From Candidatus Hermodarchaeum yapensis (GTDB lineage: Archaea; Asgardarchaeota; Hermodarchaeia; Hermodarchaeales; Hermodarchaeaceae): 64,000 nt of DNA. Shown here piece by piece: positions 10,513-54,549 of the stretch (the first letter of the stretch is position 1; every line of letters starts with the position of its first letter). The stretch covers positions 31,256 through 95,255 of the forward strand of contig JAEOSK010000007.1 in assembly GCA_016840405.1 (NCBI GenBank), given 5' to 3'. The notes below the pieces were generated by a model. The model saw only the letters and a list, made by a program, of their open reading frames with translations, had not been told where the DNA came from and made no database searches. A program made the position numbers and the translations under genes.

Positions 10513-11427
10513 ATGGTGAATGAGATGCAACCAACTGATCCATTTACAGCATTCCTTGAAGCCCTGATATTCTGGTGGCAGCTATGGGGTTGGCGGGTCA
10601 TTCCAATAATTGGGGTAATCCTTGTATGGATAATATTGATTATTACCTATGGTATACTACGACGGGTTCTGAAGAATCGGGCTAGAATTGCAGGTGTGCC
10701 TCCTGATGCCATTAATGGACTGATTTTAGCTATCGGATTTGGTCTCATTTATGTTGGTGTCATAGCTTTCATGGTTGGCTTTCCAGACATCTTTTCATAT
10801 TTCGTAGTAATATTGGGAACTAGTTCTCTCATCATTGGCGCTGCAATTGGTATTGCTGTTGGACAAGCCGTGCGGAATTTTGTTTCAGGTCTTTATGTTA
10901 TTTTTTCGAGACCTTTTCATGTCGAAGACTACGTTAAGATTGGTGATAAAGAAGGAATCGTTAAGGAAATCAGTATGAATTATACAAAACTGTTACAACC
11001 AGATGGATCCGATATTCTAGTACCGAATAGCAAGGTTCTCGATTCGGAAATTACAAATTTTATGTTTGAAAAACAAAAGCTCGCAGGCTTATTAGAAAAT
11101 ATCGAGGAAGTGGACAGAAAACAACGAAGCGTACTTCGCCAAGTGAGTAAAGTCATCGAAGTTGAGAAAATCGTACGATATGTGTTCCCAATGGCGTTTC
11201 ATACAAGTCAGGATCTACGAAAACTACGTGACGCCTTAGACCAAGTTTGCAAAAAATGGGGAACCAAATTCGGCTTCCGACCCGTTTATGAAATCACTGA
11301 AGTTGAACAATTCGCCTTTAAATACAATTTTGTCCTTTTTTCAGACAATGCAAGAAAAATACTTGAATTCAAACCTGCATTTATGGATGAAATTCTTAAT
11401 GCAATATTCATTTCTAAAAACACCTGA
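10513..11427 (+). CDS. mscS: Small-conductance mechanosensitive channel MscS family
   Basis: AIGIAVGQAVRNFVSG...RPFHVEDYVKIG..EGIV.EI...YT....DG..I.VPNS. Confidence 0.85.
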   Translation: MVNEMQPTDPFTAFLEALIFWWQLWGWRVIPIIGVILVWIILIITYGILRRVLKNRARIAGVPPDAINGLILAIGFGLIYVGVIAFMVGFPDIFSYFVVILGTSSLIIGAAIGIAVGQAVRNFVSGLYVIFSRPFHVEDYVKIGDKEGIVKEISMNYTKLLQPDGSDILVPNSKVLDSEITNFMFEKQKLAGLLENIEEVDRKQRSVLRQVSKVIEVEKIVRYVFPMAFHTSQDLRKLRDALDQVCKKWGTKFGFRPVYEITEVEQFAFKYNFVLFSDNARKILEFKPAFMDEILNAIFISKNT

Positions 11428-11509
11428 ATGCAATTTTTCAAGTAACGAAAATAAAGAACCTAAACCATAATCTGTACACAAACTAAATCACCTAATGATG
11501 GTGGATTAG

Positions 11510-12568
11510 ATGTCAAGGTTATTCCAAAAAAAATCTAAAAAATCCGGTCTTCCTCCAGGAACTCCTGCATACGTTGGTGAAAAGAAGCCTACGGAGACGC
11601 GAATCACGATCATTGAGTATGACAAAGAAAACCTCCATGAAAAAGAAGTCAAAACAATTGAGGAATGTCTTGAGGCTAAAGAGAGTTCGTTGGTAACATG
11701 GATAAGAATTACCGGTCTAAAGCAAATACCGCTTTTAGAGCATTTAGGAAAAGAATTCAAAATTCATCCTCTAGTGATTGAAGATATACTGAACACAACT
11801 CAACGACCAAAAATTGAAGATTATAAAGCTTATCTCTTCATAGTCGTAAAAAACGTTGATTTCACTTCAAAAGAGATTGAATCGAATCAAGTAAGCATCA
11901 TTTTAGGACCAAATTTTGTTATTTCAATTCAAGAGAATCAAGAAACAATTCTCCAACCTATCATAGATAGAATTCGGAATAATCGGGGAATCATTCGACA
12001 AATGAAAAACGACTTTTTAGCTTATGCAATATTAGACGCTGTTTTAGATAACTACTTTACTGCAATCGAAAAATTAAGTGATAAAATTGAGGTAGTAGAA
12101 GACGAATTAATCAGTAATCCCGTACAAGATACTCTACACGAAATTTATCATTTAAAACAAAACCTAATTGTTCTTCGCAAATCAATTTGGCCTTTTAGAG
12201 AAGTCGTCAGTCGGATGGAACGAGGTCGCTACACCTTGATTGATGAGAAACTCCTCATCTACATTCGCGACATCTACGATCATTCTATTCAAGTAATGGA
12301 AACCGTAGAAACCTATCGTGATATGCTATCCGGTATGCTTGATATCTATCTATCTAGTGTCAGTAATCGAATGAACGAGGTCATGAAGGTTCTCACAATC
12401 ATTGCCACTATCTTCATTCCACTGACCTTGATTGTAGGAATATATGGAATGAATTTTAGATTTATGCCCGAACTTGAAATACCCATTGCCTACCCTCTTG
12501 TCTGGCTATCTATGATAATTGTAGGATCAGTTTTAGTTGTGTTTTTCAAACGAAAGAGATGGATCTGA
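11510..12568 (+). CDS. corA: Magnesium/cobalt transporter CorA
   Basis: GLPPGT, HPLVIEDI....QRPKIE, PLTLIVGIYGMNF..MPEL signature. Confidence 0.97.
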   Translation: MSRLFQKKSKKSGLPPGTPAYVGEKKPTETRITIIEYDKENLHEKEVKTIEECLEAKESSLVTWIRITGLKQIPLLEHLGKEFKIHPLVIEDILNTTQRPKIEDYKAYLFIVVKNVDFTSKEIESNQVSIILGPNFVISIQENQETILQPIIDRIRNNRGIIRQMKNDFLAYAILDAVLDNYFTAIEKLSDKIEVVEDELISNPVQDTLHEIYHLKQNLIVLRKSIWPFREVVSRMERGRYTLIDEKLLIYIRDIYDHSIQVMETVETYRDMLSGMLDIYLSSVSNRMNEVMKVLTIIATIFIPLTLIVGIYGMNFRFMPELEIPIAYPLVWLSMIIVGSVLVVFFKRKRWI

Positions 12569-43379: not shown

Positions 43380-44048
43380 ATGACACCCAAAGCCAATCAA
43401 GAAGCAAAACGTGAAGTGCTAGACGTTTGCCAGGAAATGCAAAGAGTTGCCCTTGTAATAGGCAGTTCAGGGAATGCCAGCTTTCGAATCCCTGATACTG
43501 ATACAATCGCGATAACACCAAGCAGTGTTGACTACGCCTGTATGGATACTAACGATGTGATGATTATCAATCTTGAAGGTGACATTATTGACGGTGACCG
43601 AAATCCATCCACTGAACATCCGCTCCATACAGCCATCTACAAAGCTAGACCCGATGTGAATGCTATCGTGCATACTCATGGTATTTATGCCTCGGCTCTT
43701 GCTGTACTTCAAGAGCCCCTTCCTCCAATTATTGACGAATTTGTCATTAAACTAGGCGGACAGATTGAAGTCGCCAAGTATGGATTACCGGGTAGTGAAG
43801 AACTAGCCACAAATGTTGTCGAAGCTTTGGGACCCCGTAATGGTGTACTTTTGGCAAATCATGGTGGAGTCTGTGTCGGACCATCTATGGATGTAGCGTT
43901 ACATAATGCCCTCCTGCTTGAGCGCGTTGCCCAAATATACCTGCTAGCCTCCGCTGTGGATAAAAAGAAGATCAACCTGCTTCCTGCTGAATCCATTGAA
44001 ATGCAGCACCAGATGTTTGAGATGATGAAACGCGTCAAAAAACGGTGA
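43380..44048 (+). CDS. Class II aldolase/adducin family (FucA-like)
   Basis: GNAS.R, ITPS, PSTE..LH, VHTH, LLANHG. Confidence 0.92.
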   Translation: MTPKANQEAKREVLDVCQEMQRVALVIGSSGNASFRIPDTDTIAITPSSVDYACMDTNDVMIINLEGDIIDGDRNPSTEHPLHTAIYKARPDVNAIVHTHGIYASALAVLQEPLPPIIDEFVIKLGGQIEVAKYGLPGSEELATNVVEALGPRNGVLLANHGGVCVGPSMDVALHNALLLERVAQIYLLASAVDKKKINLLPAESIEMQHQMFEMMKRVKKR

Positions 44049-45895
44049 TCATCATGCCCAATCCCAAGGGGTATATGGGTGAATTCCTTTTTGCTAACCT
44101 GACCAAGGGGACTGCAGAACGGAAACCATTAAACTGGGATTATGCTCGCGATTTCATTGGAGGAGCAGGTTATGCAGCACGACTTCTATACACTCGACTG
44201 ACTGTGGAAACCCTCGATCCATTTCATCCAGACAACGAAGTTGCCATTTTCACAGGACCCCTCACAGCCACAGGTGCTCCATGTACGGGACGTCATGCCA
44301 TTTGCACAAAATCTGCCCTCACCGGTATATGGGGTGAATCCACTGGTGGTGGCTATTTCGGAGCCGAATTACGTCATACGGGATTGGATGGCATTCTCAT
44401 TACTGGGGCTGCCAAAACGCCTGTGCTATTAAACATTGGGGACGACAAAGCAGAGATTGAATCGGCTGATCACCTTTGGGGAATGGATACTTTCGCAACC
44501 GAAGAATACATCAAGAAGGAAACCAACGATTCGAAGGTTCGTATTCTCTCCATCGGACCCGCAGGGGAAAAACTGGTTCGATTTGCAGCCATCATGAATG
44601 ATAAAGGGCGAGCGAGTGCCCGCGCTGGAGCTGGCGCAGTTTTTGGTGCCAAGAAATTAAAGGCAATTACTGTTCGAGGTTCACAGAAATCTGAATTAGC
44701 AGATCCTGAAGCTTTTCGAGAACATGTGAAAATAGCGTTCCAGCTACTAGAGAATTTAGCTCCAATCCTGGGAGCAAAAGGCACCCTCTACGGTGCTGAC
44801 ATGTTGATGAATCTCTTCAATGATATGCCAGTCCGGTACTTCACTAAACCCTCCATGGATATCTCAACAATAAACGCGAATGCTTTAGATGAATATCGAT
44901 CAGGGCAATTCCGCTGTCATTTATGTCCCATAGGTTGTGGTCCAGTGGTCACCATTAGTACAGATGATTTCTCGTTAAATGATGTCGCTGGTCCCGAATA
45001 CGAAACAATTGGCGCCATGGGCACACTTTGTGAAGTAGACAACTTAGCCTTGTTGTGCCAAGCCAACCATCTTTGTAATCTTTTCGGGTTAGACACGATT
45101 TCTTGCGGGAGCGTTATAGCCCTTAGCTTTGCCGCAAATGAACACGGAAAGCTCCCGCAGAATCTCATCGGGTCTTTGAAACTAGATTTCGGTGAGGGGC
45201 GAACACTTCTGCAACTCATCGAAATGATTGCTCATCGTGAAGGGCTTGGTGATATCCTCGCTGAGGGAGTAAAACTCGCTGGAGAAAAATTAGGTATTCC
45301 TGAGCTGGCTATCCACGTGAAAGGGCTAGAGGTTCCCATGCACGATCCACGAGCCTTCTTTGGACTAGCGACTTCTTATGCGGTTTCTCCAATTGGAGCC
45401 CATCACATGCAAGGAGATATCCATACTGTCGATATGGGTGTAGCCATTCCTGACTATGACATCGAACCTGGGGATCGCCATGCCGATGAAGGGCGCGGAA
45501 TTGTCACCGCCAAATTGAGAAACTGGCGAACCATTTTCAATTCGTTAACTCTCTGTCAATTAGCCCTACTCGAACCTTCACTCGTGACTGAATTGTATAA
45601 TACAGCAACTGGATTTACCATCACACCCGATCAACTAATTGAAATCGGTGAACGTACAATGAATCTGAAACGTGCGTTTAATATCCGATGCGGGATAACC
45701 GCCAAGGACGACACAATGCCTCTCGCACTGCTCCAACCGTTTACTAGTGGACCGAATGAAGGAAAAACTCCAAATCTTCAAATGCAATTAAAGGAGTTTT
45801 ATGAATTTAGTCAATGGGATCCCAAGACTGGGAAGCCAACTCGTGAAGTGTTAATCAGGCTTGGATTAGAGGATGTCGCCAAGGATCTCTGGTGA
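44045..45895 (+). CDS. aor: Tungsten-dependent aldehyde:ferredoxin oxidoreductase family
   Basis: IGG.G, ESTGGG.FG.EL, SIGPAGE, C..CPIGC, GPEYET, GLDTIS.G, VKGLE.PMHDPR. Confidence 0.93.
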   Translation: MIIMPNPKGYMGEFLFANLTKGTAERKPLNWDYARDFIGGAGYAARLLYTRLTVETLDPFHPDNEVAIFTGPLTATGAPCTGRHAICTKSALTGIWGESTGGGYFGAELRHTGLDGILITGAAKTPVLLNIGDDKAEIESADHLWGMDTFATEEYIKKETNDSKVRILSIGPAGEKLVRFAAIMNDKGRASARAGAGAVFGAKKLKAITVRGSQKSELADPEAFREHVKIAFQLLENLAPILGAKGTLYGADMLMNLFNDMPVRYFTKPSMDISTINANALDEYRSGQFRCHLCPIGCGPVVTISTDDFSLNDVAGPEYETIGAMGTLCEVDNLALLCQANHLCNLFGLDTISCGSVIALSFAANEHGKLPQNLIGSLKLDFGEGRTLLQLIEMIAHREGLGDILAEGVKLAGEKLGIPELAIHVKGLEVPMHDPRAFFGLATSYAVSPIGAHHMQGDIHTVDMGVAIPDYDIEPGDRHADEGRGIVTAKLRNWRTIFNSLTLCQLALLEPSLVTELYNTATGFTITPDQLIEIGERTMNLKRAFNIRCGITAKDDTMPLALLQPFTSGPNEGKTPNLQMQLKEFYEFSQWDPKTGKPTREVLIRLGLEDVAKDLW

Positions 45896-45943
45896 ACACT
45901 TTTTCACCCAGAATTTGTTCTGAATTAGCGGAACTCTTTAATT

Positions 45944-47428
45944 ATGGTACTTATGCTCCCACGATGTCTGTGTTATTTTCACGAAGGGTTTGACATGGGA
46001 CCAAAACAAGAAAAAGAATCACAGAAGAAAGGCAAACCCCAGCCTTGGTCAATCCAACCACCCAAAATGCCTGAACAAAAACCAAAAACCCGGATTAAGA
46101 ATTTTGATGAAGTAAATTTAGGATATAATGAAGCGCAAATCCTTCAAGAAGCCAACCGTTGTATGGCCTGCAAGAATCCCAAGTGTGTAGCAGGTTGTCC
46201 CGTTGAAATTGATATCAATCGATTCTTAGACGCTGTTCGCAATCAGGATTACCGCACAGCCATTCGGATTATCAAAGAGAAGAATAGTCTACCAGCAATT
46301 TGTGGTCGAGTGTGTCCGCAAGAAGTGCAATGTCAACAAGGATGTATCCTAAGTAAGAAAGGGTATCCTATTGAAATTGGGCGGATTGAACGATTCTTAG
46401 CTGACTGGGAACGCGAACATGGTGTTGAAGTACCCAAACTTCCCAAATCCACAGGTCGTCGAGTTGCCATCGTCGGAAGCGGACCTGCTGGTCTTACTGC
46501 AGCTGGTGATTTGGCATTACTTGGTCATCAGGTTACCGTCTTTGAAAGTCTACACGAACCGGGCGGCGTGTTGATCTACGGGATTCCTGAGTTTCGTCTG
46601 CCCAAGGCTGTTGTCAAAGCTGAAGTTGACTATCTCAAACAACTTGGTGTTGAATTTCAACTCAATGCATTCATCGGACAGTTATACTCACTCGAAGACC
46701 TCTTTACTCAAGGCTTTAATGCCATTCTGCTCGCCTCCGGTGCAGGCCTTCCCCGCTTTCTCAACATTCCCGGAGTCAACCTTGTCGGCACCTACAGTAG
46801 TAACGAGTTCCTCACAAGAGTAAACCTCATGTGTGCCTACCAATTCCCCGATTATGATACACCAATTATCCACGGAAAAACCGTGGCTGTTATAGGAGGC
46901 GGCAACGCCGCCATGGACAGTGCCCGAACCGCGTTACGGCTCGGAGCCAAGAAGGTCTATATCGTTTATCGGCGATCAGAAAATGAGATGCCGGTGCGAC
47001 GTGAAGAATACCACCACGCCAAAGAGGAAGGGGTCACCTTTCAATTTCTTACCCAACCAATCGGAATCCTTGGCGACGATCAAGATCGTGTTAAGACCAT
47101 GCAATGCATTCGCAATTGCCTGGGAGAACCCGATGAAAGTGGTCGCTGCCGACCTGAAGCAATCGAGGGATCTGAATTCGAATTCCCCGTTGACACCGTC
47201 ATTTTTGCCATCGGGGCCTCAGCGAACCCCTCAGTTCCACGTTGCACACCAGAGCTTGAATGCGATAAATGGGGTGATGTTGTCGTCGACCCAGAAAAAC
47301 TTGAAACCTCCATACCGCATGTCTGGGCCGCTGGTGATCTCACTGGAGGCGAAGGCACAGTAATCGCCGCTGCAGGTGAAGGCAAACGTGCTGCACGCAA
47401 CATCCACGATTATCTCATGAAACTCTAG
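45944..47428 (+). CDS. sudA: NfnB/SudA (GltD-like) NADPH-dependent oxidoreductase large subunit
   Basis: RCMAC..P.C..GCP, CGRVCPQE.QC, GSGPAG, YGIPEFRLP, GGGNAAMD; likely start 45995. Confidence 0.93.
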   Translation: MVLMLPRCLCYFHEGFDMGPKQEKESQKKGKPQPWSIQPPKMPEQKPKTRIKNFDEVNLGYNEAQILQEANRCMACKNPKCVAGCPVEIDINRFLDAVRNQDYRTAIRIIKEKNSLPAICGRVCPQEVQCQQGCILSKKGYPIEIGRIERFLADWEREHGVEVPKLPKSTGRRVAIVGSGPAGLTAAGDLALLGHQVTVFESLHEPGGVLIYGIPEFRLPKAVVKAEVDYLKQLGVEFQLNAFIGQLYSLEDLFTQGFNAILLASGAGLPRFLNIPGVNLVGTYSSNEFLTRVNLMCAYQFPDYDTPIIHGKTVAVIGGGNAAMDSARTALRLGAKKVYIVYRRSENEMPVRREEYHHAKEEGVTFQFLTQPIGILGDDQDRVKTMQCIRNCLGEPDESGRCRPEAIEGSEFEFPVDTVIFAIGASANPSVPRCTPELECDKWGDVVVDPEKLETSIPHVWAAGDLTGGEGTVIAAAGEGKRAARNIHDYLMKL

Positions 47429-47471: not shown

Positions 47472-49166
47472 TTATTGTGCCGCCACTACGATTTTTAGTC
47501 TGGGTCTACTGGCTGATTCAAGTTGTTCTTCAAGAATCTCTCGCGCAATGTCTAAGGCCACTCTATCATCAAATATTCCTTGACCCTTTTTTCGCGCTAC
47601 TTGGAGGATCTGACGTTGCACCTTGAGTTTCAGGTCGCCAATGGCTAGCGCTCCAATCCCAAAAGTATCCGGAATTAACTCACGAAGATCGTCCATTGGA
47701 TTGAGTGACTCAACTCCACTTGGAGGCACAGCGTTTACATCCACTAGTATTTTGGGTCCTAAAACCGCTTGAAGTTGTGCCAGTGATACTAATTGAACGC
47801 CAGGAGCACCCACTGTAAAAATCAAGGTCACGTCTTCTAAAAGCTCCTGAATATCATCTGGTGTGATTGCTTGAACACCTTCTATTGTATTCTCCTTGGT
47901 TGAAGCTCGATGAGCAACAGCTTTTGCCCGTTCAATTTTACGTGATGTTAGTAGTGTGATAGCTCCACATTTGGAAAGTAGGTGAGCCACACTTTCACCA
48001 ACTGGTCCCGTTCCAGCAAGAACTAAAGCGATTTTTCCTTTGAGCGAACCCAAATCAAGTTGATGTAACGCAGCTTCAGCTTTGGCGACCATTGCTGCAG
48101 AAGTGGAAAAAGCACCATGAGGGTCAACAACTATTGAAGTTTCGAATGGTTTCACCATTGCTTTCTGAATCGTTTCCGCCATCTGACGGGCGATAGGAAC
48201 TTGGCGTCCACCAACGAAGAAACAGGTGTGTTTTACTCCTTTGGTTCCTCGTGAAAAGATAGCATCTTGGACTAAGTCATGAATACGATCGATTGCAACC
48301 CCCACATAGGGAACTACAACATTAAATCCTGCGTCGTACGCTACACAGATGTCAAAAGGGCTAGCGTGGTCATCCGCTTCTAAGAAAAAAAGGATATCAC
48401 TTAATTTCGCTTTTGGGCGCTTAATCACCGGCACAACAGAAATGGAAGATACTCCTGTGAGTTCAGTCATACCTTTGATTTCTTCCCTAGGTGTTTCTGA
48501 GAGAATTTGCTTAAAAGATATGGGTGTCACTTCCACATCTAGGGATTGCAAAAGGTCCATTAAACCTTGGAAATGTCGCGGACTGCTTAGATGTATAGCC
48601 GTGATTCGTTTCTTTTTGAAGCGATCCGCCTGTTTTAGAATTCCCATAGCCATCCAGCTTTCACGAATCCCAAATTGTACTTGTCTAATCTCTTCTTCAA
48701 GTTCGTCATGTAAATACTGTCCATAGGCAACTAGTCGATCAATATTTTCCTGCACATCTGGGGTAATTTTTTCATCCGACAAGACCCTTAGGCCCTCTAA
48801 AACTTCATTACGTCTTTCCAGTTTCAGTTTGATACCCCGAGAGAGATAACTTTGAGCAAAATCATCCATATCAACAGCGTAATAGGGAATCTTTAGTTTC
48901 GCTAAGACATCCGCTATTGGGTTGTCTTCATGAAACTCCTTCATATTCCGCATACCTAATTCATCGGTGGCAAAATCTGGCTGTTCTGATTCGACCACCT
49001 GTTTTATCATGTCACAATAGGCCATTGACGGTCGTTTAATCATAGACATCTTCGAGTCAGACGCTGAAGAGGTGGGAGTGATTTGCCAAGGTTCATCGTA
49101 AGCTTTTCTAATCAAGAAGACCCGCAATTTTTTTTCTTTTAAGGGAGCAAGCTCTAATGTTTTCAT
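47472..49166 (-). CDS. NAD(P)-dependent methylene-H4MPT dehydrogenase (MtdA/B-like) with ~250-aa N-terminal TraB-like domain
   Basis: SPFDICVAYDAG, VQDAIFSRG..G, DPHGAFSTSAAMV, GTGPVG, DVNAVPPSG, GALAIGDLK. Confidence 0.85.
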   Translation of the reverse strand: MKTLELAPLKEKKLRVFLIRKAYDEPWQITPTSSASDSKMSMIKRPSMAYCDMIKQVVESEQPDFATDELGMRNMKEFHEDNPIADVLAKLKIPYYAVDMDDFAQSYLSRGIKLKLERRNEVLEGLRVLSDEKITPDVQENIDRLVAYGQYLHDELEEEIRQVQFGIRESWMAMGILKQADRFKKKRITAIHLSSPRHFQGLMDLLQSLDVEVTPISFKQILSETPREEIKGMTELTGVSSISVVPVIKRPKAKLSDILFFLEADDHASPFDICVAYDAGFNVVVPYVGVAIDRIHDLVQDAIFSRGTKGVKHTCFFVGGRQVPIARQMAETIQKAMVKPFETSIVVDPHGAFSTSAAMVAKAEAALHQLDLGSLKGKIALVLAGTGPVGESVAHLLSKCGAITLLTSRKIERAKAVAHRASTKENTIEGVQAITPDDIQELLEDVTLIFTVGAPGVQLVSLAQLQAVLGPKILVDVNAVPPSGVESLNPMDDLRELIPDTFGIGALAIGDLKLKVQRQILQVARKKGQGIFDDRVALDIAREILEEQLESASRPRLKIVVAAQ

Positions 49167-49245: not shown

Positions 49246-49320
49246 TCATGACAACTTTTGTCGTCAATCCTAATACTAATTCTCTGATGGTTAGAGCATG
49301 GATAATTTTTGTTGTCATGA
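49246..49320. promoter_or_regulatory. 10-bp inverted repeat TCATGACAAC...GTTGTCATGA upstream of the mtd fusion
   Basis: Arms at 49246-49255 and 49311-49320; related TTGTC-N9-GACAA at 53999-54017. Confidence 0.5.
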
Positions 49321-49357: not shown

Positions 49358-50683
49358 CTAATCACGGAATCTGATATCTGTATGAGTAGCACAAGAAACA
49401 CATGGATCAAAACATCGGACCGCCATCTTTGCTCGTTCGAGGATTTGATCATTTGACCAACCAAGATCTAGACAGGCTGTCATGACTTTTTTGACAATTA
49501 GAGTTATTGCACTGGCATTAAGTTCTGTGGGTACTCGAATATCGATATCCTCGATTCTTCCAACGTCGTTTATGTTTATCCGATAGAGAAGAGTTCCTCG
49601 TGGTGCTTCCACAGCACTGGCTCCGATGCTGATTTGTGGTTCCAATGCGACTGAGACATCTTCACCCGTTTGCCATTCAGTTTCTAACAGTTTGATTGCG
49701 TTAGTTATAGCAAATTCGATTTCATCAATTCGGAGAAGCCCTGAATAAAAAAGGTTGGGTATATTGCGGAGGGATTCTTTACTCTTTGTGGATTTGGTTT
49801 GGAGTGCTGCTAGTCGGGCGTGAGGTCCTGCTAGTAGATTATTGAGCCTTTTGTTTGATTCTGCGTAAATGATTTTAGTCGGTGCTTCAGGCAAGTCCTG
49901 TTCAACTAGGAATTCAGAGAATTCAGCACAGGAAAATTTACTTTGGGATCCATCTTCAGAGATGAATTCGATTTGGTCAGTACCATAGAATCGGTTTTTA
50001 TGTGTGTCAAAGCAGCTAATGTAGCGGGGTTGGGGGAGAGTATATTTTTGGATTTCACCTTCGATTTCATTTAGTAACCAACCGTAGTATTCCTTGGTCC
50101 ATTTAATACCTGAGAGTGTTGCGTGGAGTTGTTGGATAAGTTCTTGCTGTTGAGTGATGGTGATGTTTTGCATGAGTCCACCAGGAATTAGGTTAAAAGC
50201 CATGTTTGTATTACCTGCGGTGGCTGTGATTAGTGTCTCCGCGCAATTGTATAATTTTATGGCGATGGGTAAGAGGCGTGGTTGTGTTCGATCTATGCCA
50301 AGAATGTCTTGGCGAGAGATTTGGTCAGTCAGATACATTATGTCGGGTAAGGTTGAGAAGAAAACACTGTAAGTATGTGATCGGATTATTTCTCCTAAAA
50401 GCGCCAGTTCGCGGAGTAATTCTGCTACTGGAGGAATCGATACTTCAGATGCGGACTCGATTGCTTTGACTGCCCCGATTCTATGGGCTACAGGGCAAAT
50501 TCCACAGATTCGAGGTACAATTTTAGGTAAGTCTTTAACTTGTTGACCAATTATGACGCCCTTGAAGTCTCGTGCAGTAGGCATGTTATAAATTACATTG
50601 GTAATGCGGTCTTTCTCTCGTGTGACAATAAGTGCGCTATCACCTTCAATACGGGTCATGGTCAAGGATATCCGAATTTTCAA
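49358..50683 (-). CDS. mvhA: Group 3 [NiFe]-hydrogenase large subunit (MvhA-like, divergent)
   Basis: TRIEG, RICGICPVAH (L1), EAPRG, RCFDPCVSCATH (L2). Confidence 0.85.
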   Translation of the reverse strand: MKIRISLTMTRIEGDSALIVTREKDRITNVIYNMPTARDFKGVIIGQQVKDLPKIVPRICGICPVAHRIGAVKAIESASEVSIPPVAELLRELALLGEIIRSHTYSVFFSTLPDIMYLTDQISRQDILGIDRTQPRLLPIAIKLYNCAETLITATAGNTNMAFNLIPGGLMQNITITQQQELIQQLHATLSGIKWTKEYYGWLLNEIEGEIQKYTLPQPRYISCFDTHKNRFYGTDQIEFISEDGSQSKFSCAEFSEFLVEQDLPEAPTKIIYAESNKRLNNLLAGPHARLAALQTKSTKSKESLRNIPNLFYSGLLRIDEIEFAITNAIKLLETEWQTGEDVSVALEPQISIGASAVEAPRGTLLYRININDVGRIEDIDIRVPTELNASAITLIVKKVMTACLDLGWSNDQILERAKMAVRCFDPCVSCATHTDIRFRD

Positions 50684-51414
50684 TGTTTTAATTTCAGCTC
50701 CGGTTTTTGGTATCTAAAGGCAAGTTCAGCGTATTCCCGAATCGTTTCGCTGACTTTTAGTACGGAGAAGAGATTGGCAATGGCTGCGGGTAAATTCCCG
50801 TTTAGTACACCCATACAGCCATCACAGGGAGTGGATCCCTTGATACAATGTGCTTCACATCCAGCACGGGTTATAGGACCCAAGCAGAGAATACCTTCGC
50901 GCAAAAAACAGCTTTTTGGAGAATGCGTGGAATGTAATGATGTAATCTCAATCTCATATGTTTGATCTTGTGCAAATGGGCATTCCCAACACACGTTTTT
51001 CTCAGGTAGTTCGAATTCAGAACCATCGATTGCACTCAATAGGAGATTTCCAAGAAGCCTTCGTGGTGGTGGGCAGCCAGGTAATGACGAATGTGGATCA
51101 ACGAATTTATTAACAGGGTCAATATGCATGTTTGGAGATTGACTCATAATTCCGCCGAGAACCGCACAACTCCCAAGCGCAATAATCTTGGTTCCTTCTG
51201 TCCATAGTCTGCGAAGAAGTTCAGCGTCTTCATTACATGTGACTCCACCTTCAACAAATACTACGTCAAGATGATCTTCACTTTGGATATCTGATATTAA
51301 TCGAAAGACTTGAATATCTGCTGATTTGAGGAGTTCTGGGAATATGGCACTACCAAGTACTGCAAACATACAGCCACTACATGAGTTTAGCTGAAGGAAA
51401 CCAATCTTGGTCAT
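50680..51414 (-). CDS. mvhG: [NiFe]-hydrogenase small subunit (MvhG-like)
   Basis: CSGC, VEGG, GSCA..GG, PGCPP, VC.EC, CLGP.TRAGC.A.C....PC.GC.G. Confidence 0.88.
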   Translation of the reverse strand: MTKIGFLQLNSCSGCMFAVLGSAIFPELLKSADIQVFRLISDIQSEDHLDVVFVEGGVTCNEDAELLRRLWTEGTKIIALGSCAVLGGIMSQSPNMHIDPVNKFVDPHSSLPGCPPPRRLLGNLLLSAIDGSEFELPEKNVCWECPFAQDQTYEIEITSLHSTHSPKSCFLREGILCLGPITRAGCEAHCIKGSTPCDGCMGVLNGNLPAAIANLFSVLKVSETIREYAELAFRYQKPELKLKH

Positions 51415-53957
51415 GAACTTAGCAGCTCCTTTAATTCAGTAGCAAATTGGTTAATCTCTGTCGCAAAAACATGACCCTCTACTGCTGACACATTGAGAAT
51501 ACGAACACGATTCTGTAATTCGTTTCCATAGAAGTTTGAGAGAACGCCAATTCGTGCCTTTGCCTTCTTGATACCATCGAAGTACCGGCATGCTGAGTCA
51601 TGACACCCAATAACCATAACTCCATCAAACCCATAATTTAGGGCGGTTATTACAATATTTGCATCAACACAACCAGTGCACGGCAGTCGAACTACCATTG
51701 CGCTAGCGTCGTATTCCAATCGGCGGATGCCAGCATTATCTGCTGCGGAGTATCCGCATGAATCACAACAAAATACTAGAATTCGCGGTGAGGTGATGCC
51801 TTTAGACAGTGCATTTACTGCCGCTAGGACCTCTTCCTGAATTGGAGGTGAAGACAGGGCTCCTGTGGGGCATATTGCGATACAGGCTCCACAACCTTCA
51901 CATTTTAGAGTATCAATACGGACGGTATCAGCTGTGATGGAGATAGCATTGAAGGGACATGACTCTAAACAAAGGTTACAAAGACCACATTTTTCCTGAA
52001 TGATTTGAATGGGTATATCTCCTGCAGGGAGACTATCCTTTCCTAATAATAGTAGCACTTCTAGAGCAGTTCTTTGGGCGTCTATTACTAGTTCGGAATA
52101 CGATTTGGGACCGGTCACAGAACCGCAGGCCCATATGCCTGAGGATAAGCTCTTCGGGTCGAGAAAGCCACGTTTATCTAGGGAAAAATTCGTCAGGGTT
52201 CGAAGGGCTAACTGCTGGTCTCCAGGAATCATACCCATATTGAGAACAATAAAATCGGCTGGAAAGCAACCCAAATCGGTTTCGATAAACCGTTTCCGAC
52301 CTCGATGGATGAGTTTTATACTTTCACAAAAGTGAATACGGGAATCTTCAGGGATGAAGGTGGTTCGATCAGGTGGAATTCGAGAATTGTCATAGACAAC
52401 ATGGATGGTGACATCCGGCGTGTTGTGTTCAACAACATCCAAGTATTTCTGAGCAACATTACAGCAGTACTCTGAACAAGAATTGATTGAATTCAGACAT
52501 TGAAGAACGACTATGGATCGAGCAGGCTTGCCAGTTTTTTGCCGAATTACTTGACCTCCTGTTGGTCCATCTGGGGCAAGCATTCGTTCAAATTCATAAG
52601 AGGTGATAATATCTTTTGATGGATTGTATTCAATTGAATCTAGGCGTGGTTTGGTTCGAGGATCACAAACTTCTGCCCCTGTTGCTAGGATTAAGGCTCC
52701 GACAGAAAACTTCTTGGTTTCAGGTTGCTGATCTAAGTTAATGGCGTGGGATGGACAAATTTTTTCACATTTTTGGCAAGTTCGACAAAAATCAATATCC
52801 GCATTGTCAATAACGGGCTTATTAGGATAGGCGGCAGGACATGGTAGATGGATAAGTTTACGTTGTGTGAGGTTAAATTCAAATTCATTTGGTCGGGACT
52901 CAGGACAGATATCTGCACACGATCCACACATAATGCACCTAGTTAACTCGACATAACGAGGGTGTTGTGTGCCGATGATTTCATAATTTCCAATTGTACC
53001 TGAGATATCTGTGGGTTCAATGTTAGTAAGTATTCGAGTTTTGCCGGAAAGGATAATCGATGATACGTCCTCAGCTATCATACATGGACCACAATCTATA
53101 GCTCCATGGATTCTTTCCCATCGGCGAGCGATGCCCCCCAGACAAGGTTGTTTTTCTAGGAGGATAACAGAATAGTCAGACTTTGCTAAAACCTTTGCAG
53201 CTTCTAATCCTGCTAGTCCACCACCTATGATAGCTACACTTTTCCGAATTGGTACGGTTCGTGTTGGAATTGGCACGCGTTGCCGGAGCATAGCCACGCT
53301 AGCTCGGATTAGGAGCAACGCCTTTTCTGTAGCTTGTTCGGGCATATTTCTATGTACCCAGGCACACTGTTCACGAATATTTGTAAATTCTACAGGTACA
53401 TCTAATTGCACTCGAATAGTAGCAAACATTTCGCTATGTAAACGAGGGGAACAGGCCGCGATGACAAGATTATTCAAAAAGTGGCGTGCACACCATTCCT
53501 TTAGTTGTTCAACATTTTCTAGTAAGCAAAGATGTTGAAAAACCCTTGTGCGTTCCACAAAAGGGAGGGCATTCACTTTCTCTACAAGTTCACCCACATT
53601 AATGGCTTGGCGGATTTCCTCTCCACAAGTACAAATGATTACCCCAATACGGAAGATTGCTCCTCGAGAATCAGCTTCGCGTAAATCGATTGACTCTCCG
53701 GCCATCAACTGTTCCTTTGCGATCATCAAGCGGATTGTATTTTTTCCCGCGGCTGTAAGCTGATATAAGCCATTCCGTTTCTCAATAAATCCTTCAAGTT
53801 TTTTCAGATGATAGTTAAATAGACCAGTTTTTTTGACCCCTACTTTTTCCATCAAATCCTTGTAGCTTAAAAGACGCTCAGTATCTAGAATTCGAAGAAT
53901 ATGTTCGCGGAGTGGATGAGCCAATGCCGCATATACGTTCATTACATGCCCCTTCAC
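51411..53957 (-). CDS. hdrA: Winged-HTH (ArsR-like) - HdrA - MvhD fusion protein
   Basis: ALAHPLRE.IL..L...L..K.G.FNYHLKKL...Y.LT..G; C.CG, AACSP, NIREQCAWVH, IIGGGLAG, four ferredoxin motifs, CCDSC...LPCTG...GCH...C.Y. Confidence 0.88.
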   Translation of the reverse strand: MKGHVMNVYAALAHPLREHILRILDTERLLSYKDLMEKVGVKKTGLFNYHLKKLEGFIEKRNGLYQLTAAGKNTIRLMIAKEQLMAGESIDLREADSRGAIFRIGVIICTCGEEIRQAINVGELVEKVNALPFVERTRVFQHLCLLENVEQLKEWCARHFLNNLVIAACSPRLHSEMFATIRVQLDVPVEFTNIREQCAWVHRNMPEQATEKALLLIRASVAMLRQRVPIPTRTVPIRKSVAIIGGGLAGLEAAKVLAKSDYSVILLEKQPCLGGIARRWERIHGAIDCGPCMIAEDVSSIILSGKTRILTNIEPTDISGTIGNYEIIGTQHPRYVELTRCIMCGSCADICPESRPNEFEFNLTQRKLIHLPCPAAYPNKPVIDNADIDFCRTCQKCEKICPSHAINLDQQPETKKFSVGALILATGAEVCDPRTKPRLDSIEYNPSKDIITSYEFERMLAPDGPTGGQVIRQKTGKPARSIVVLQCLNSINSCSEYCCNVAQKYLDVVEHNTPDVTIHVVYDNSRIPPDRTTFIPEDSRIHFCESIKLIHRGRKRFIETDLGCFPADFIVLNMGMIPGDQQLALRTLTNFSLDKRGFLDPKSLSSGIWACGSVTGPKSYSELVIDAQRTALEVLLLLGKDSLPAGDIPIQIIQEKCGLCNLCLESCPFNAISITADTVRIDTLKCEGCGACIAICPTGALSSPPIQEEVLAAVNALSKGITSPRILVFCCDSCGYSAADNAGIRRLEYDASAMVVRLPCTGCVDANIVITALNYGFDGVMVIGCHDSACRYFDGIKKAKARIGVLSNFYGNELQNRVRILNVSAVEGHVFATEINQFATELKELLSS

Positions 53958-54074
53958 ACTTTTTTTTTAAAAAAATAAAATTACTTTGATAAATTCAATT
54001 GTCATACACTAAGACAAAGACAAAAATGCTTGCCCTGTTTCAAAAGTGAAGAGCAAGTGGCTCCAACTATTTTC

Positions 54075-54323: not shown

Positions 54324-54549
54324 GCTATATCACCCCACATTAATGTGTTTTCGTATGTATTGAAAGTGAATTATAAAACAAAAAGACTCTGAAGAAATTA
54401 TTTCTCAATATTTGACAAACTAAGTTATCCATGAATTTGAAATACTTTTAACTAATCGCGTATGTAGCTACGTCATTTCAGGTTTTTTTATTGATGAGAT
54501 AAATTACTAATGTAGATAATTTTCTCTTCTAACTCCTTTCAAAATTTAT

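Follow-up and report, generated by a model that had tools for sequence, protein, structure and literature searches.

Can a hydrogenase complex carry its own transcription factor? The question is raised by a stretch of 64,000 nucleotides (nt) from the Asgard archaeon Candidatus Hermodarchaeum yapensis (contig JAEOSK010000007.1, positions 31,256 to 95,255; hereafter the window), in which three minus-strand open reading frames (ORFs) succeed one another with 4-nt overlaps, as a preliminary description of this DNA had reported. In operon order (51411-53957, then 50680-51414 and 49358-50683) they encode a fusion of a winged helix-turn-helix (wHTH) domain of the DUF7347 family with HdrA and MvhD, an MvhG-like small subunit and an MvhA-like [NiFe] large subunit. 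The preliminary description had proposed that the electron wire of a metabolic complex was here turned into an H2- or redox-sensing transcription factor. The balance of H2 and ferredoxin has a central place in current models of Asgard syntrophy and of the origin of eukaryotes. Whereas the known bacterial route runs from an H2 sensor to a kinase and on to a response regulator, a complex that included a transcription-factor domain and had an operator almost to itself would pass the signal directly from redox chemistry to the promoter.

On balance, we hold it probable that the cluster encodes a hydrogenase-flavoprotein complex which operates without HdrBC and which also regulates its own cluster, in the manner of PutA. 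The fusion is a variation on the Mvh/HdrA-type complex, on the trigger enzyme and on the one-component regulator. What is new here is a palindromic operator that marks the promoters of the cluster; the cluster itself was previously figured by Seitz et al. 2019.

A conserved fusion gene in Asgard archaea

The first gene had been described as an ORF of 848 amino acids (aa). The ORF is present, but its homologues all start with MNVY or MDIY, and for this reason the true start is most likely ATG 53942, preceded by GAAGGGG, which yields a protein of 843 aa. An assembly chimera or a mis-called start could mimic such a fusion, and it had been left to be checked whether the architecture was confined to this assembly. 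Among the 80 best loci, collected from one-genome-per-species contigs, the fusion is full length with the wHTH included in all 80 (at least 80 species-level Asgard genomes), under the labels Promethearchaeota/Loki, Thor, Hel, Hod, Hermod, Jord, Sif and Sigyn. A fusion-type match, defined as one covering query residues 1 to about 220 at E <1e-40, is found in about 118 of the 400 Asgard genomes sampled, and full-length fusions populate at least 194 protein clusters in one search and about 38, reaching down to 38% identity, in another. The uninterrupted fusion thus recurs in assemblies from many studies, and this conservation refutes a chimera, whose probability we regard as negligible. We found no evidence in its support, and the start codon, GTG 53957 or ATG 53942, is the sole uncertainty.

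The order fusion, small subunit, large subunit is constant in every locus with enough DNA. The suggested link to a gene resembling methylene-tetrahydromethanopterin (H4MPT) dehydrogenase (Mtd) is also borne out, this gene lying adjacent to the cluster in about 52 of the 80 loci. In public records the fusion goes by the names 'hydrogenase iron-sulfur subunit', 'FAD-dependent oxidoreductase' or HdrA. Prometheoarchaeum syntrophicum MK-D1, which has a single hydrogenase, did not appear by name among the 120 matches listed. Two members of the family carry other labels: one protein cluster (P0029) is labelled Thermoproteota, and locus L067 (DATKTW010000111.1), labelled 'Candidatus Nanopelagicaceae bacterium', contains the full Asgard-type cluster together with a divergent Mtd-like gene and is probably a mis-binned contig.

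The amino-terminal domain is an ArsR-type wHTH

The proposed amino-terminal wHTH both scores and, by prediction, folds as such. Pfam PF24038 (DUF7347, an ArsR-like wHTH) matches residues 7-76 with E 1.6e-15 and 57.6 bits against a cut-off of 27.6, and in a genome-wide profile search the fusion reaches 62.1 bits. An AlphaFold2 (AF2) model of the domain alone, built with 46 sequences, has a predicted local distance difference test (pLDDT) score of about 95 over aa 10-80. In this model three helices come first, followed by the putative recognition helix at 39-48, a wing formed by a β-hairpin at 53-62 and a long helix spanning 64-80, after which comes a low-confidence linker. In the full-length model the wHTH is likewise a separate, tethered domain, with pLDDT <50 at aa 85-94. 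The top Foldseek matches are all dimeric repressors (ArsR family, CadC, BigR, SmtB, NolR-DNA, YodB and MarR), with probability 1.0, template modelling scores of 0.5-0.63 and weak E values (3.8e-3 or more) that are usual for such short domains. The fold, the helix-turn-helix-wing order and a palindromic operator are shared with ArsR/SmtB repressors (CadC 1U2W, SmtB, BigR and NolR); in contrast to these, the sensing part here would be a flavo-iron-sulfur protein of 760 aa. A two-copy complex prediction of the domain (aa 1-104) scored 0.20 and 0.18, the mark being 0.42.

Conservation of the domain at least equals that of the redox body. Across 46 diverse members the mean column identity is 73% in the wHTH versus 68% in the body, and R12, T39, G40, N43, H45, K55, Y60 and G66, residues of the putative recognition helix among them, are invariant. 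Other DUF7347 domains of the same genome belong to ordinary one-component regulators, one of them joined to an effector-binding domain of the GyrI-like type.

A palindromic operator marks the promoters of the cluster

For an unbiased promoter comparison, 250 nt of DNA ahead of the fusion gene were taken from each of 47 non-redundant loci and set against the other intergenic DNA of those loci. TGACAA, with the 6-mers overlapping it, was the most enriched (55 observed versus 19 expected, in 34 of the 47), and these words are half-sites of a palindrome with the consensus TTGACAA-N6-TTGTCAA and the general 18-bp form TGAYAA-N6-TTRTCA. The spacing is specific: GA[CT]AA-N6-TT[GA]TC occurs 75 times in 593 kb, whereas N4, N5, N7 and N8 spacings give 4-7 occurrences, and 67 of the 75 sites are intergenic although intergenic DNA makes up 13% of the total. 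The sites track the promoters of the cluster as gene order varies. They lie before the fusion gene, as a pair in the divergent intergenic region, as a pair before an FrhB-like gene where this heads the operon, and between the large-subunit and mtd-like genes in the window's clade.

Whole genomes reveal how local this target set is. In the complete chromosomes of two relatives (G401 and G400) the strict 18-mer is present in 3 and 4 copies, of which 2 and 3, respectively, lie at the operon or its mtd-like partner and the remainder inside ORFs. Each chromosome has two strict sites at the operon promoter, and in G400, where the Mtd-like gene sits 10 kb from the cluster, the third site lies 163 nt upstream of its detached operon, which comprises a 209-aa protein and the Mtd-like protein. 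For the window's own genome, a 2.7-Mb scan with a matrix trained on other genomes only returned seven hits at the threshold of ≥17 bits, 4 of them in the cluster before the Zn-finger, fusion and mtd-like genes (O1, O2a, O2b and O3 in Table 1). The genome's five other HdrA loci received no hit. The operator is nearly private to the cluster in these three genomes. At O1 an additional TTGTC-N15-GACAA arrangement extends to about 54025, and the position of O2a (+4625) is also occupied by a site in loci L023 and L026-L031.

A target set so local is most simply served by a regulator that is itself encoded locally, and the wHTH is the sole DNA-binding domain found in every version of the cluster. From this comparative evidence we infer that the palindrome is bound by the wHTH of the fusion, and together with the fold, the conserved fusion and the synteny it gives good support to the broader proposal that the domain binds DNA and controls local genes. 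The sign of regulation is hinted at by O1, which is followed immediately by an AT-rich tract. Its right half, TTTATCA, looks TATA-like and occupies roughly the position expected of a TATA box, given a short leader and GAAGGGG as the ribosome site; this suggests that binding may repress by occlusion.

Several candidates were rejected along the way. The palindrome is not the motif of a global regulator, given that there is no genome-wide excess of N6 sites here and that the strict form occurs 3-4 times in the two complete relatives. A divergent gene of ~205 aa, considered as the regulator, shows no signature of DNA binding; it is paralogous to the Mtd extension described below and absent beside the window's cluster. 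A possible further regulon member at C39:52713, where a matrix hit with a mismatch lies upstream of a BNR-repeat protein, is probably due to chance; the same contig carries two adjacent ORFs of 444 aa (C39:49761-52655, L105), of which the one at 51321-52655 is RuBisCO large-subunit-like, and the one-mismatch operator-like site follows them. A scan for sigma-70-type promoters found 13 against 13.1 expected, a bacterial pattern that is uninformative for an archaeon.

These observations bear on an explanation in which the complex is an ordinary metabolic one of the Mvh/HdrA type, the wHTH serves as a docking or structural module, and a separately encoded factor binds the palindrome. Precedents exist for both halves of this idea. 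BamF, the MvhD-like adaptor of class II benzoyl-CoA reductase, has a wHTH that touches BamI and not DNA (bioRxiv 10.64898/2026.04.10.717634), and Hdr operons of Methanosarcina are under a separate wHTH protein, HdrR (PMC11218639). Moreover, Seitz et al. view the cluster as an energy-transferring complex (PMC6478937). On the other hand, we found no other DNA-binding gene conserved across the cluster variants, an operator almost unique to the cluster is what a locally encoded regulator would be expected to have, DUF7347 serves ordinary one-component regulators in this genome, and the domain is predicted to sit on a low-confidence tether and not to pack against the body. We therefore regard a purely structural wHTH as quite improbable.

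Conserved redox centres and no HdrBC in the cluster

The remainder of the fusion is an HdrA body followed by an MvhD-type domain, as had been proposed. The body aligns with the solved HdrA 5odc_A over residues 103-703 (E 3e-91), and also with 8rvu_a. Pfam identifies the Rossmann motif for flavin adenine dinucleotide (FAD), four ferredoxin-type motifs and, at 726-845, FlpD/MvhD (E 4.6e-31), and MvhD chains of the PDB match the carboxyl terminus with E about 1e-18. Of the two 2x[4Fe-4S] ferredoxin domains, one is inserted and one is carboxyl-terminal. Among solved structures the large subunit is closest to MvhA (5odc_F, E 1.6e-42), and after MvhA/VhuA come group 3d and 3b enzymes.

The cofactor ligands of this assembly are preserved. 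Across the 46 diverse members, the cluster cysteines of the HdrA amino-terminal domain, the DCxxC pair by the FAD, both ferredoxin domains and the [2Fe-2S] site of MvhD are conserved at 96-100%, the ferredoxin-type exit domains at 100%. C726, C729, C755, C780 and C785 of the MvhD domain are kept, and twelve cysteines of the small subunit, sufficient for three clusters, are conserved in 46 orthologues. In 42 orthologues of the large subunit C60, C63, C428, C431, the active-site Arg R362 and H434 are conserved, with the Ni-Fe cysteines at 98-100%; in the window RICGIC and DPCVSCATH supply the two CxxC ligand pairs. The preliminary description was right that all four Ni-Fe cysteines are retained alongside the unusual RIEGD, ARDFKG and EAPRGTLLY, but wrong to call the HdrA core of the window eroded: every cofactor cysteine is present, since the 'QC...C..CC' motif keeps its four cysteines and its loop is merely 6 residues shorter. 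Erosion is true of most of the family. The cysteines of this motif, which we assign to the cluster HA4 that Wagner et al. 2017 reportedly described, are retained in 9 of 46 members (the window and its eight nearest relatives) and lost in the other 37. In the Thor-labelled clade (L027-L031) the amino-terminal RxEGH motif of the large subunit reads RVGGP or RGGGP, with no Glu, while the Ni-Fe cysteines are retained; the missing Glu may affect proton transfer.

How, then, does the complex relate to MvhAGD-HdrABC (group 3c; PDB 5ODC, 8RVU and 9SW2), the H2:heterodisulfide/ferredoxin electron-bifurcating complex of methanogens? The two share MvhA, MvhG, MvhD and HdrA parts, for all of which it provides the best solved relatives, and the Ni-Fe ligands, the three small-subunit clusters, the [2Fe-2S] cluster, the FAD, the DCxxC pair and the ferredoxin domains are conserved in the window complex. 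In contrast, the window complex has MvhD fused to HdrA, an added wHTH and its own operator, the HA4-type cluster is lost in most members of its family, and all its subunits score far under the curated NCBIfam cut-offs: the fusion scores 372/1300 and 310/1400 with HdrA models, and the large and small subunits 136/800 with VhuA and 115/450 with VhuG. The best model for the fusion is HdrA2 of Methanosarcina acetivorans (NF040770), in which the HdrA body also ends in MvhD, but the score of 529 bits does not reach the cut-off of 1100 and HdrA2 lacks a wHTH. Yan, Wang and Ferry 2017 reportedly found HdrA2 to act with HdrB2C2 and without a hydrogenase.

HdrB and HdrC are missing from the cluster and its contig. 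The reported absence of hdrB extends to the entire 95-kb contig, where there is no CCG/HdrB match, and we found no HdrB-type gene across the 80 best loci either. HA4 is the route by which the high-potential electron travels from FAD to HdrB (PMC13580544). Asgard papers generally class such genes as MvhADG-HdrABC; since most members have neither HdrBC nor the cluster leading there, reconstructions that count the fusion as such may be wrong, and a widely annotated gene needs a new reading.

The loss of this route is one of the points that favour a pure one-component sensor of H2 or redox state, in which there would be no metabolic throughput and H2 oxidation would set the redox state of the flavoprotein, and hence DNA binding and the expression of the mtd-like and other partner genes. 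Group 2b regulatory hydrogenases (HoxBC/HupUV), which signal via HoxJ/HupT and HoxA/HupR, have large subunits without a carboxyl-terminal extension. Similarly, in most members of the fusion family the large subunit ends exactly at DPCxxCxxH and has no cleavable tail. The large subunit is also the fastest-evolving part (22-29% identity between clades versus 37-40% for the fusion), about 80% of members have lost the HA4-type cysteines and hence the HdrBC route (PMC13580544 for the role of HA4), other canonical Mvh/Hdr sets are available in the genome for metabolism, and all the wHTH and operator evidence applies equally. However, the window's clade retains both the HA4 cysteines and a tail of 7-12 aa (7 aa in the window, TDIRFRD, after DPCVSCATH), and a sensor would not need ferredoxin-type exit domains that are fully conserved. 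The regulon contains little beyond the cluster and redox partner genes (mtd-like and FrhB-like), a small output for so costly an apparatus. Although the likeness to group 2b extends to a hydrogenase tied to gene control, the sequence is nearest group 3c, the DNA-binding domain lies within the complex, the large-subunit tail is short, and no kinase or receiver gene was seen among the scanned neighbours of the cluster. A pure sensor is, in our judgement, unlikely. A working enzyme fits better than a dedicated sensor, because the ferredoxin exits are conserved, the redox partner genes are variable and the regulon is tiny.

A trigger enzyme as the favoured reading

PutA of E. coli and Salmonella is a trigger enzyme in which the redox state of the flavin selects between the roles of repressor and enzyme. 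It is the closest functional analogue of the window complex, being a flavoenzyme with an amino-terminal DNA-binding domain in one polypeptide and an operator at its own promoter. The same layout is found in the window, where an intact body and a DNA-binding domain share one polypeptide and putative operator O1 lies at its own promoter. PutA differs in being bacterial, in using a ribbon-helix-helix and not a wHTH, and in its unrelated chemistry; for the window complex a redox switch is a conjecture.

In the enzyme role, the conserved ligands indicate that electrons would pass between H2 at the Ni-Fe site, the three clusters of the small subunit, the [2Fe-2S] cluster of MvhD, the clusters of HdrA and the FAD. 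They would exit via the ferredoxin domains, to which the window's clade may add the HA4-type cluster that it has kept. Candidate redox partners are encoded by the variable neighbours: in the window this is a Mtd-like dehydrogenase of NAD(P) type, whereas other clades have an FrhB-like flavoprotein. In the regulator role, as domain, fold and comparative genomics suggest, the wHTH would hang on a flexible tether of ~20 residues from the HdrA amino-terminal domain and bind TGAYAA-N6-TTRTCA at three promoters, those of its own operon, of the Zn-finger gene and of the mtd-like gene. As with PutA, the signal would most likely be the state of the flavoprotein, whether of redox or of assembly. In solved Mvh-Hdr complexes the HdrA amino-terminal domain is part of a mobile arm that shifts during turnover (PMC13580544), and movement of this arm would be a plausible way for redox state to change DNA binding.

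Some observations weigh against the trigger enzyme. The mobile arms of the 5ODC (MvhAGD-HdrABC)2 assembly are said to lie at opposite ends, and it is hard to see how the two wHTH domains of one HdrA dimer would reach an 18-bp palindrome. The distribution of the fusion is patchy (6 of 15 genomes of the window's genus are positive), 7 of the 47 non-redundant loci have no site matching the pattern used, and another factor could bind the palindrome. Finally, both the fast evolution of the large subunit and the lack of a tail in most members would fit a low-turnover sensor.

A further and more tentative possibility, towards which we do not lean, is that the complex directly senses H2 or the ferredoxin pool while binding DNA, such that reduction of the HdrA flavin and clusters by the hydrogenase moves the arm that bears the wHTH and alters operator occupancy. 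If this were true, a hydrogenase would be a one-component transcription factor with no kinase between, and Asgard archaea would use the operators to adjust how strongly the C1 (methylene-H4MPT) branch and the redox partners of the complex are expressed. As to the electron wire turned sensor of the preliminary description, DNA binding and local control stand by inference, and the repurposing is not borne out: every redox centre from the Ni-Fe site to the FAD and the ferredoxin domains is conserved, and the regulon fits an autoregulating enzyme at least as well as a pure sensor. Such a hypothesis can be put to the test, with an operator known to the single base, a small regulon and a domain that can be produced on its own.

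The preliminary description also knew of no account of this architecture. For the DNA-binding fusion this holds, in that our full-text literature searches found no paper describing a wHTH-HdrA fusion or its operator. The three-gene cluster, by contrast, appears in Seitz et al. 2019 (PMC6478937, Fig. 5), where that of Helarchaeota is presented as a possible, possibly membrane-associated energy-transferring complex 'distantly related to mvh-hdr'. The genes are of the same family, contig NODE_147_length_7209 of that study being locus L055 of the present set, and the passages of the paper on this cluster drawn on here make no mention of a DNA-binding domain or an operator.

Features of the cluster and its neighbours

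Table 1. Genes, protein domains and putative operators of the fusion cluster (positions in the window; residue numbers refer to the 843-aa protein)
Feature	Position	Strand	Basis or remark
wHTH, predicted DNA-binding domain (DUF7347/ArsR-like), aa 1-80 of 843	53703..53942	-	Pfam PF24038, AF2, Foldseek, conservation
Flexible linker from wHTH to HdrA amino-terminal domain, aa 81-98	53649..53702	-	Low pLDDT
HdrA-like body: amino-terminal cluster domain, FAD/TrxR-like domain with DCxxC, ferredoxin domains, HA4-type Cys motif	51798..53648	-	5odc_A/8rvu_a alignment, Cys table
Carboxyl-terminal MvhD-type [2Fe-2S] domain, HdrA2-like fusion	51414..51791	-	Pfam FlpD, MvhD chains of the PDB
MvhG-like hydrogenase small subunit, 244 aa	50680..51414	-	Pfam Oxidored_q6, E 4e-16
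MvhA-like [NiFe] large subunit, 441 aa, divergent	49358..50683	-	NiFeSe_Hases; best solved relative 5odc_F
MtdA/B-type (Mpt_N + Rossmann) methylene-H4MPT dehydrogenase-like gene, ~260-aa amino-terminal extension	47472..49166	-	Pfam Mpt_N, E 1e-29
Small double Zn-finger ORF, 82 aa	54075..54323	-	Upstream, co-directional; only in the four closest loci
Putative operator O1, TGACAATTGAATTTATCA	53987..54004	.	45-62 nt upstream of the fusion ATG; matrix 23.2 bits, the genome's top; conserved in loci L022-L024
Putative operator O2a, TGACAACAAAAATTATCC	49300..49317	.	Between the mvhA-like stop and the mtd-like start; 20.0 bits, the genome's second best
Putative operator O2b, TGACGACAAAAGTTGTCA	49249..49266	.	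83-100 nt upstream of the mtd-like ATG (49166); 17.5 bits
Putative operator O3	54413..54430	.	About 90 nt upstream of the Zn-finger ORF, the head of the block; 17.5 bits; among the genome's 21 loose N6 sites

The Mtd-like gene lies downstream and co-directional in the window's clade and divergently upstream in many others. Its amino-terminal extension has a free-standing paralogue of ~205-215 aa, encoded in many genomes just upstream of the Mtd-like gene (L102:3470-4099 and L039:5015-5659). The Mtd-like proteins of the window and L102 are 33% identical and the free-standing copies of L102 and L039 25%; the 209-aa protein and its Mtd-like neighbour both start with MEVLELK, and neither the 209-aa copy nor its counterpart in L035 has a Pfam match. 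Past the Mtd-like gene, on the opposite strand (43380-47428), the window encodes a class II aldolase, an aldehyde:ferredoxin oxidoreductase and a GltD/SudA-like NAD(P)H flavoprotein, and no operator site was found in this interval.

In one Loki-type clade (L036:4742-5896, L079:4773-5891 and six similar loci), an FrhB/FdhB-like gene stands directly before the fusion gene, with two operator sites upstream of it. The encoded flavoprotein matches PF04432/PF04422 and has an amino-terminal 2x[4Fe-4S] region; the arrangement suggests a partner module linked to coenzyme F420 or flavin. About 0.6 kb downstream of the large-subunit gene, six loci (L036 at 11189-12409, L041, L042, L043, L049 and L099) encode a CCG-domain protein of 406-409 aa, which resembles a 424-aa protein on contig C41 of the window's genome and could be a partner of the disulfide-reductase type in a clade without the HA4 cysteines.

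Other hydrogenase and Hdr genes of the genome

Five further HdrA paralogues that go with MvhD are encoded elsewhere in the genome, as are several HdrB genes and canonical sets of Mvh G/A, and none of these has a wHTH. Contig C57, at first taken for a canonical Mvh-Hdr locus, in fact carries group 3b and group 4 hydrogenases: at C57:22000-40000 (L021) a four-subunit hydrogenase of group 3b type adjoins a group 4 set (Complex1_49kDa/30kDa and NuoH/L-like proteins) that includes an HdrB-like CCG protein. Contig C77 (1-3000) carries HdrB, HdrA and MvhD and breaks off within MvhG, of which it holds the start, and contig C25 (1-2200) opens with the remainder of an MvhG, followed by MvhA; the two probably join into a single canonical Hdr-Mvh operon.

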